Of a DNA stretch of 64,000 nucleotides, positions 59,920 to 60,630 are shown in pieces (the stretch's first letter is position 1; every line of letters starts with the position of its first letter). Below the pieces are notes generated by a model. It had not been told where the DNA came from. It saw only the letters and a list, made by a program, of their open reading frames with translations, and ran no database searches. The translations under genes and the position numbers were made by a program. Source of the DNA: Giardia intestinalis (taxonomy: Eukaryota). The stretch is from NCBI GenBank assembly GCA_000002435.2, contig CM018790.1; one strand, given 5' to 3'.

Positions 59920-60187
59920 ACCTCACAGCCCCGCCACGCAGCAGGACTCCGGGGTCAGCAGCCTCTAGCGCGGGAGCGAACGCGGCTCAGGGAAGTCGGC
60001 AAGCCGGCTCCGTAACCTCGGGAAAAGGAGTGGCTCTGACGGCGCGCCGGGTCAGAACTGGAACGGACGCGGGGATCCCGACTGTTTACTAGAAACACAG
60101 CGTCGCGAGGGCCGCACCCGGCGCTGGCGCGACGTGATTTCTGCCCAGTGCCACGACCGTCACCGTGAAGCGATCCGCCGAAGCCCT

Positions 60188-60239
<52 letters not shown>

Positions 60240-60630
60240 GGGCAATTTCCGACGTGCATGAATGGACCAACGAGGATCCCACTGTCCCGAGCCGCGCCTC
60301 CGCGAGCCTCCAGCCTCGGGAACGGGCGAGGGCCGGCCAGCGGGGCAAGAAGACCCTTTTGAGCTTGACTCCAGCCCGGGCCTGTGGGGCGGGGCGGCCG
60401 GCGCAGCGCACAGGGGAGGCCGCGCCCCTGAGACACCCTGACGGCCGCCGCCGCCCCGCTCACCCGGTCGCGCGGGGACCCGCCCGGGCGGGGAGTTCGG
60501 CTGGGGCGGCGCGCCTGCTACACCGGACCGCAGGCGTCCCACGGCGGGCTCAGCGAGGACGGAGGCGGTTTACTACGTAATATGCGCGCAAGGCGGTAAG
60601 GACATTGGAGGGGAGGCAGCCTCACGACGG
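59920..60630 (+). rRNA. Internal fragment of large-subunit (28S-like) rDNA, about 0.7 kb, truncated at both ends. It corresponds roughly to the domain IV to early domain V region.
   Basis: Matches to universally conserved LSU blocks: cagggaagtcggcaagccggctccgtaacctcggg ; gactgtttactagaaacacagc ; tgatttctgcccagtgc ; ggtaaacggcgggagtaactatgactctcttaaggtagccaaatgcctcgtc ; gcatgaatgga ; cactgtccc ; aagaagaccctttt(g)agcttgactc ; ggggagtt.ggctggggcgg ; ggcctcacga. The conserved peptidyl-transferase block (...cagggataac.ggct...) that should follow within about 60 nt is absent. Confidence 0.7.

Follow-up and report, generated by a model that had tools for sequence, protein, structure and literature searches.

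A GilM-type retrotransposon joined by its tail-less 3' end to a truncated LSU rRNA gene fragment at a chromosome end of Giardia intestinalis

Telomeric arrays of the non-LTR retrotransposons GilM and GilT in Giardia were reportedly described by Arkhipova and Morrison in 2001, and Genie 1 by Burke and colleagues in 2002. Both GilM and GilT have long been suggested to help maintain telomeres, and the chromosome-end architecture in which they take part, with a duplicated gene unit, rDNA and retrotransposon arrays, is already known for Giardia. A review summarising Upcroft et al. (1997/2010) gives the telomere gene unit as a VSP or CRP gene, a kinase, an ankyrin and rDNA at the chromosome ends (PMC10999387), and rRNA genes and reverse transcriptases were found at most WB chromosome ends in the WB genome paper (PMC7000408). 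Outside Giardia, two kinds of retrotransposon junction bear comparison with these arrays. R2 and R1 elements are joined to 28S rDNA, while in endonuclease-independent L1 insertion and in the end healing of the Drosophila HeT-A/TART type a DNA 3' end primes reverse transcription. Break-primed, endonuclease-independent insertion of L1 has been documented, with junctions that are direct or carry microhomologies of 1-6 bp (PMC9237045); in HeT-A/TART-type healing the 3' end of the element faces the centromere and extension proceeds toward the chromosome end. The locus described here has something in common with each of these systems, and is best explained as the centromere-proximal edge of a telomeric GilM array at one WB chromosome end.

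The subtelomeric gene unit

The window, by which we mean the whole stretch of 64,000 nt that was analysed, is a chromosome end of Giardia intestinalis WB. Its plus strand carries in order a VSP gene, a gene that combines a NEK kinase with ankyrin repeats, a 55-nt spacer, LSU rDNA that starts in mid-gene, and a GilM-type element on the opposite strand (Table 1). Farther to the left of the VSP gene lie large ordinary genes outside the gene families, such as those for a P-type ATPase and an AAA ATPase.

Table 1. Coordinates of the features at the right-hand end of the window
Feature	Position	Strand	Basis
VSP (variant-specific surface protein) ORF	53518..56331	-	Pfam VSP PF03302, E 6.8e-81
NEK kinase and ankyrin-repeat gene, 985 aa	56924..59881	+	Pfam Pkinase and Ank families
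Gene-to-rDNA spacer, 55 nt	59882..59936	+	Conserved in L023, L024, L025
Internal LSU rRNA gene fragment, 628 bp, about LSU nt 1475-2102, both gene ends missing	59937..60564	+	Rfam RF02543 and intact LSU comparison
Classical R2 target region, CTCTCTTAAGG/TAGCCAAATGCCTCGTC, nick equivalent 60222/60223	60212..60241	+	Motif positions
Junction microhomology, rDNA ACGGAG in place of the element's terminal ACAGAG	60559..60564	+	Ungapped comparison of window, intact LSU and tandem GilM
GilM-type 3' UTR, 2124 nt, complete to 6 nt from the canonical end, without poly(A)	60565..62688	-	100% identity to L007, L008
GilM-type ORF, C-terminal 436 codons and stop codon, running off the window	62689..64000	-	Open frame

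The subtelomeric telomere gene unit opens with the VSP ORF, and the kinase, ankyrin and rRNA sequences follow it chromosome-endward in the order of the published definition (PMC10999387), with an ankyrin-to-LSU junction that is duplicated in other copies. The window nevertheless differs from the described unit in that the kinase and the ankyrin repeats form a single ORF, and in that the rDNA is cut to 628 bp and succeeded distally by GilM instead of by more rDNA and telomere repeats. Telomere repeats (TAGGG) are absent within the window, and the array extends past position 64000. The protein encoded by the NEK/ankyrin gene, which ends in a TAG at 59879-59881, is 100% identical to P0005, 'Kinase, NEK', of Giardia intestinalis ATCC 50803 (WB), from a 1,539,535-bp contig.

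Other repeats were noted across the window. A perfect 605-bp direct repeat (1-605 and 952-1556) lies within the first long ORF (5-2926), and inside the VSP ORF a long tandem array runs through 54386-56014 in a 111-bp register, its self-matches falling at offsets in multiples of 111 bp with 96-99% identity. Three repeats of about 3.07 kb, at 27398-30461 (+), 35302-38385 (-) and 47069-50150 (+), sit in the gene-family-rich region near the VSP gene and show 97.7-99.2% mutual identity. Each has an RT-like stretch that is 33% identical to GilM residues 455-663 (E 5e-25), and all three are probably copies of GilD/Genie 2, the third and 'dead' family of Giardia retrotransposons.

The rDNA fragment and its left boundary

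A first-pass annotation of this DNA had recognised an LSU rDNA fragment truncated at both ends and antisense to an adjoining RLE-type element. This was borne out: Rfam LSU_rRNA_eukarya (RF02543) matches the plus strand at 59973-60331 (341.8 bits, E 2.4e-89), the stretches quoted from it, GTAACTATGACTCTCTTAAGGTAGCCAAATGCCTCGTC and GGGGAGTTCGGCTGGGGCGG, are present in the fragment, and the element lies on the other strand. A looser local Rfam search widens the match to about 59930-60597. The ends of the fragment were fixed against intact assemblage-A-type Giardia LSU contigs (L026-L028), which have 0 mismatches to the window, L026 spanning 59937-60564 with 628/628 positions identical; identity to B-type LSU (L015-L022 and L030) is 98.6%. 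To the left of 59937 the intact gene reads ...GCCGTACCGAC where the window has ...CACAGCCCCGCCA, and past 60564 the intact LSU reads ACCTCCCGCGGAGCAGAAGGGC where the window has GCGGTTTACTACGTAATATG, the missing LSU 3' part beginning with ACCTCCCGCGG. The extent given earlier, 59920-60630, was accordingly too wide. The annotation had taken rDNA as far as ...cctcacgacggag, but 60565-60630 is the 3' end of the retrotransposon, 100% identical to the GilM-type copies of L007 and L008, and the true breakpoint lies 66 nt to the left of the one it had placed. It had also allowed that the LSU might simply be divergent past 60630, and the alignment to intact LSU that it proposed as a check shows collinearity stopping at 60564. 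Mere divergence of the LSU beyond 60564 was likewise rejected, since the known intact A-type sequence is entirely different there.

The fragment matches the LSU model in sequence and structure. It represents only about nt 1475-2102 of a complete LSU gene in an SSU-5.8S-LSU unit, and the window holds no match to SSU or any other rRNA. The numbering was taken from L015, a chimeric contig that served only for counting from the LSU 5' end. This metagenome contig (ENA k141_310841) drops in GC from about 0.75, the value of Giardia rDNA, to about 0.45 in positions 1-7500, and the conserved LSU 3' region holds its point of fusion between Giardia rDNA and low-GC DNA with the 5' part of another eukaryote's SSU. 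The Logan contig L026 terminates at 1026-1052 in an Illumina adapter (GAGTTCAGACGTGTGCTCTTCCGATCT). Antisense to the LSU fragment, at 59955-60542 (-), there is a 195-codon ORF. Its homologues, located in rDNA across many eukaryotes, carry protein annotations (Pfam PF27657 RRT15, 'senescence-associated protein', 'ART2'); it belongs to a well-known class of spurious rDNA ORF annotations. Proteins matching this ORF (P0125, P0150, P0151) gave access to the rDNA contigs L003, L004 and L015-L028. A metagenome scan with a shared 34-mer returned one intact B-type LSU (L030), from a collection so nearly free of Giardia that the lack of a junction match there says nothing either way.

The left rDNA junction, ...AGCCCCGCCA/CGCAGCAGG, lies 55 nt past the NEK/ankyrin stop codon. 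The spacer between them includes AGTAAAC at 59886-59892, presumably a Giardia-type polyadenylation motif, as we take AGTRAAY to be the Giardia poly(A) signal. Three contigs from three different sequencing runs (L023, L024 and L025) have the same 55-nt spacer and an identical junction, ...AGCCCCGCCA/CGCAGCAGGAC, including a 21-mer that crosses it. Their ankyrin-gene 3' ends have diverged, substitutions and a 6-nt indel setting them apart from the window, and their LSU runs uninterrupted for 293-543 nt past 60564. The left boundary is an old, ancestral junction that was duplicated with the subtelomeric gene unit, because it recurs exactly in three independent contigs in which the LSU continues beyond 60564; and since these copies share the junction and have the longer LSU, the LSU predates the element. 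That the LSU piece was a retro-copied rRNA fragment added together with GilM was rejected on the same ground, as the left junction exists in the longer copies. Between the left-junction copies the flanking gene sequence differs but the LSU portion does not, which suggests either a recent origin of the rDNA or its homogenisation with functional rDNA. A paralogous VSP-NEK pair from isolate DH (L029) has no rDNA after it and is uninformative on the junction.

The GilM-type element and the right boundary

To the right of the rDNA, a minus-strand frame stays open between 63999 and its stop codon at 62689-62691 and encodes a CCHC motif and a PD..D/E..K restriction-like endonuclease region. This part of the ORF is 100% identical to residues 633-1068 of the ORF of L006, and the window from 60562 to 64000 is 100% identical to the tandem GilM-type copies of L007 and L008, which carry the same sequence as the window copy. 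These contigs were among ten Logan contigs (L005-L014) reached by exact look-up of a window ORF located inside the 3' UTR. Public protein matches to the ORF tail are only 53-63% identical; among them is L001, from an assemblage B isolate, in which elements stand head-to-tail with poly(A) between them. Units of L007 and L008 end in ...GTAGTAAACCGCCTCTGT(A)16, in fuller form ...CATATTACGTAGTAAACCGCCTCTGT(A)16 (the same end is also written CCGCCTCTGT(A)16), and the CCATG of the next copy follows, that is, CC and then the ATG of an ORF of about 1,110 codons. The repeat unit measures 5478 bp, close to the 5,474 bp published for GilM (PMC7000408), and it is by this length only that the element would be assigned to GilM and not to GilT. 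The full ORF matches Pfam RVT_1 (E 3.6e-21), with a sub-threshold C2H2 zinc-finger match (E 1.5e-4, 22.6 bits against a 27-bit cut-off) and a weak, likewise sub-threshold alignment over an R2-like C-terminal CCHC...RHD...PDL region; its best match in the PDB is an R2 protein (9nl2, E 5e-9, for the RT). A single ORF with an N-terminal zinc finger, RT, and C-terminal CCHC and PD..D/E..K motifs makes this an RLE-type (R2/CRE/Genie-like) element.

The likeness to the GilM/GilT arrays extends from this single ORF (zinc finger, RT, C-terminal CCHC/RLE) to the long 3' UTR, the head-to-tail order in which poly(A) is followed immediately by the next ORF, the unit of about 5.47 kb and the centromere-ward 3' end. 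Head-to-tail units with only poly(A) between them are present in L005-L008, and the window holds one partial unit. It differs from the described arrays in that this copy, the proximal member, has its 3' end on rDNA without poly(A), and in that target bases replace its last six.

The GilM ORF begins 2 nt past the poly(A) of the preceding copy (L007 2571-2575, L006 129-3458), leaving essentially no 5' UTR, so that transcription of each copy would have to start in the 3' UTR of its upstream neighbour. For the window's proximal copy, such activity would run into rDNA and the NEK gene, both in antisense. Two of the other contigs have unusual ends. In L014 (3540-3550; SRR3178017) a GilM-type 3' end, ...CCGCCTCTGTCT, has no poly(A) after the canonical TGT, and the contig stops 2 nt into the flank; a second tail-less junction may be present here, from a different isolate. 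In L005 (4340-4520) the last ~120 nt of a GilM-type copy switch to a different 3' end (...CAGTAAATTACTCTGGG(A)11), after which comes an element with a different ORF start (CCATGGCGCCTCGC), suggesting mixed GilM/GilT-type arrays or chimeric units.

At the right boundary the three relevant sequences can be compared without gaps. Intact rDNA at the break reads ...GAGGACGGAG/ACCTCC, the element end in reverse complement reads (T)16ACAGAG/GCGGTTTACT, and the window has ...GAGGACGGAG/GCGGTTTACT and lacks poly(A) at the junction. GAG at 60562-60564 is exactly common to rDNA and element, and 5/6 positions match overall. The single mismatch places a DNA G opposite a U of the element RNA 5'-CUCUGU-3' (the last six bases before poly(A)), a position compatible with G·U wobble, and the base kept is the G of the rDNA, as expected if the DNA end served as primer. 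LSU positions that match the element end at 5/6 or better number 6/2300 (0.26%), and about 0.1% of random breaks in the 5478-bp unit would lie 6 nt or less from its end. These low odds suggest that the joining took place at the start point of reverse transcription, both figures being post hoc and drawn from a single junction. The right boundary is a later event than the left and is found only at this chromosome end among the loci examined. No contig independent of the reference assembly was recovered across it among the 30 fetched loci or in two look-ups with junction-spanning or adjoining ORFs, and the reference assembly is its sole witness.

Origin of the right boundary

It is probable that the boundary arose when reverse transcription of GilM RNA was primed, through microhomology, from a 3' end of rDNA, seeding a telomeric array; the arrangement itself is read directly from the bases, and from it we infer the RNA-primed step. 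A tail-less 3' junction with short microhomology to the target end, as expected of break-primed retrotransposition, is what the window contains.

The first-pass annotation had suggested that the break may be a retrotransposon target-site junction, about 100-150 nt upstream of the classical R2/R1 target region. The part of this claim that stands is that it is a retrotransposon junction and not an anonymous deletion; the part that does not is R2-like site specificity, in which the GilM endonuclease would recognise and nick this LSU position as a recurrent rDNA insertion site. Such targeting would suit an element of R2-type architecture (zinc finger, RT, CCHC/RLE) whose 3' end sits against a multicopy target, and the likeness to R2 and R1 includes joining through the 3' end to 28S/LSU rDNA. 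The R1 region, which we take to lie about 74 bp downstream of the R2 nick, falls at about 60278-60297. The R2 nick site itself, CTCTTAAGG/TAGCCAAATGCC, located with a 28S substrate and cleaved bottom-strand oligonucleotides (PMC13000458), lies at 60222/60223. Both regions (60212-60297) are uninterrupted within the fragment and identical to intact LSU, with nothing inserted at the conserved R2 (AAGG/TAGC) or R1 site, and the break at 60564/60565 is 342 nt downstream of the R2 nick and roughly 270 nt past R1. The sequence ACAGGGATAACTGGC, earlier taken for the R2/R1 region, is not their target; in intact LSU it comes about 130 nt after the point of the break. The annotation's own recurrence test gave the same answer: the 16-mer across the right junction is present in 0/30 fetched loci, and 16 other LSU contigs, all short, run uninterrupted through the site, none of them occupied. 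By that test the site-specific reading fails, the breakpoint not recurring in any of the sequences examined. Moreover, the usual neighbour of a GilM-type element is another copy of itself, all four of the other 3' ends with readable downstream sequence (L005-L008) leading through poly(A) into another element. Similarity of the target to the canonical GilM head was rejected, the rDNA flank matching the usual post-tail sequence at 8/30 positions against a background mean of 9, and a tblastn search with the GilM ORF found no retroelement beside the rDNA units of L015 and L016. With a junction that also lacks poly(A), targeting of the R2 kind is highly improbable here.

A joining at the DNA level deserves more weight, although we consider it unlikely. 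In that case non-homologous or microhomology-mediated end joining would have fused a pre-existing GilM array to a subtelomeric rDNA unit after breaks, and reverse transcription would have had no part in forming the junction. An exactly shared 3-nt GAG is typical of DNA end joining too, and the end-primed reading draws on one junction; Giardia subtelomeres are described as rearrangement-prone (PMC4985590), and microhomology-mediated deletions have been reported for Giardia GilD elements (PMC2861651). However, the break in the element would have had to land no more than 6 nt from the terminus of a 5478-bp unit, the match extends to 5/6 with its sole mismatch at a G·U-compatible position, and not one A of the 16-A tail is present, for which priming just upstream of the tail is the better fit. 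A misjoining of high-copy rDNA and GilM repeats in the long-read reference assembly is scarcely credible. Both flanks are repeats, chromosome ends are the hardest parts of the WB assembly (PMC7000408), and no independent contig crosses the junction, but misassemblies join at shared repeats and not at a 3-nt overlap on the exact terminus of a retroelement. Both flanks are also 100% identical to independent contigs up to the junction, and short-read graph assemblies are expected to break at a repeat-to-repeat junction, so that their silence is uninformative.

The subtelomeric gene unit was duplicated together with its left rDNA junction, and in the other copies the LSU continues normally. Under end-primed reverse transcription, a later cut at this chromosome end would have ended the LSU at 60564. 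The rDNA sense strand, with its free 3' end (...GAGGACGGAG-3'), would then have annealed to 5'-CUCUGU-3', the six bases that immediately precede the poly(A) of a GilM transcript, through five Watson-Crick pairs and one G·U. Extension of the rDNA end by the GilM reverse transcriptase, beginning with GCGGTTTAC, would give ...ACGGAG/GCGGTTTACTACG..., with no poly(A) and no bases lost or added, and later copies would build the array toward the telomere. The strand lengthened by first-strand synthesis would thereby be the one whose 3' end points to the chromosome end, an orientation that has been stated for both GilM and GilT (PMC10999387). The starting DNA end may have been a broken chromosome end in the course of healing, or may have come from a nick followed by loss of the rDNA beyond it; with the array's far side outside the window, either true insertion or end healing may apply. 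Two differences from L1 and HeT-A/TART should be kept in mind: GilM encodes an RLE nuclease, its endonuclease independence being suggested by one junction, and Giardia has telomerase and TAGGG repeats.

More tentatively, and as a possibility that we hold to be rather doubtful, the junction could be a fossil of an event in which a retrotransposon healed a chromosome end although the protist has telomerase, a break in rDNA being capped by the GilM reverse transcriptase by way of a 6-bp pairing with the GilM 3' UTR. If this were true, GilM arrays would serve as functional back-up telomeres, and they could be founded de novo on ends that are not telomeric. The locus is one case from a reference genome that has been studied well, and it mainly corrects coordinates and removes the R2/R1 analogy. 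What it adds at the level of bases is that the founding copy starts exactly at its 3' terminus, without a tail and with microhomology, on an rDNA end, as priming on a DNA end predicts; initiation of this kind is plausibly a modest addition to the known architecture. Should the same signature hold at other chromosome ends, it would provide direct sequence evidence for the seeding of retrotransposon arrays in Giardia.
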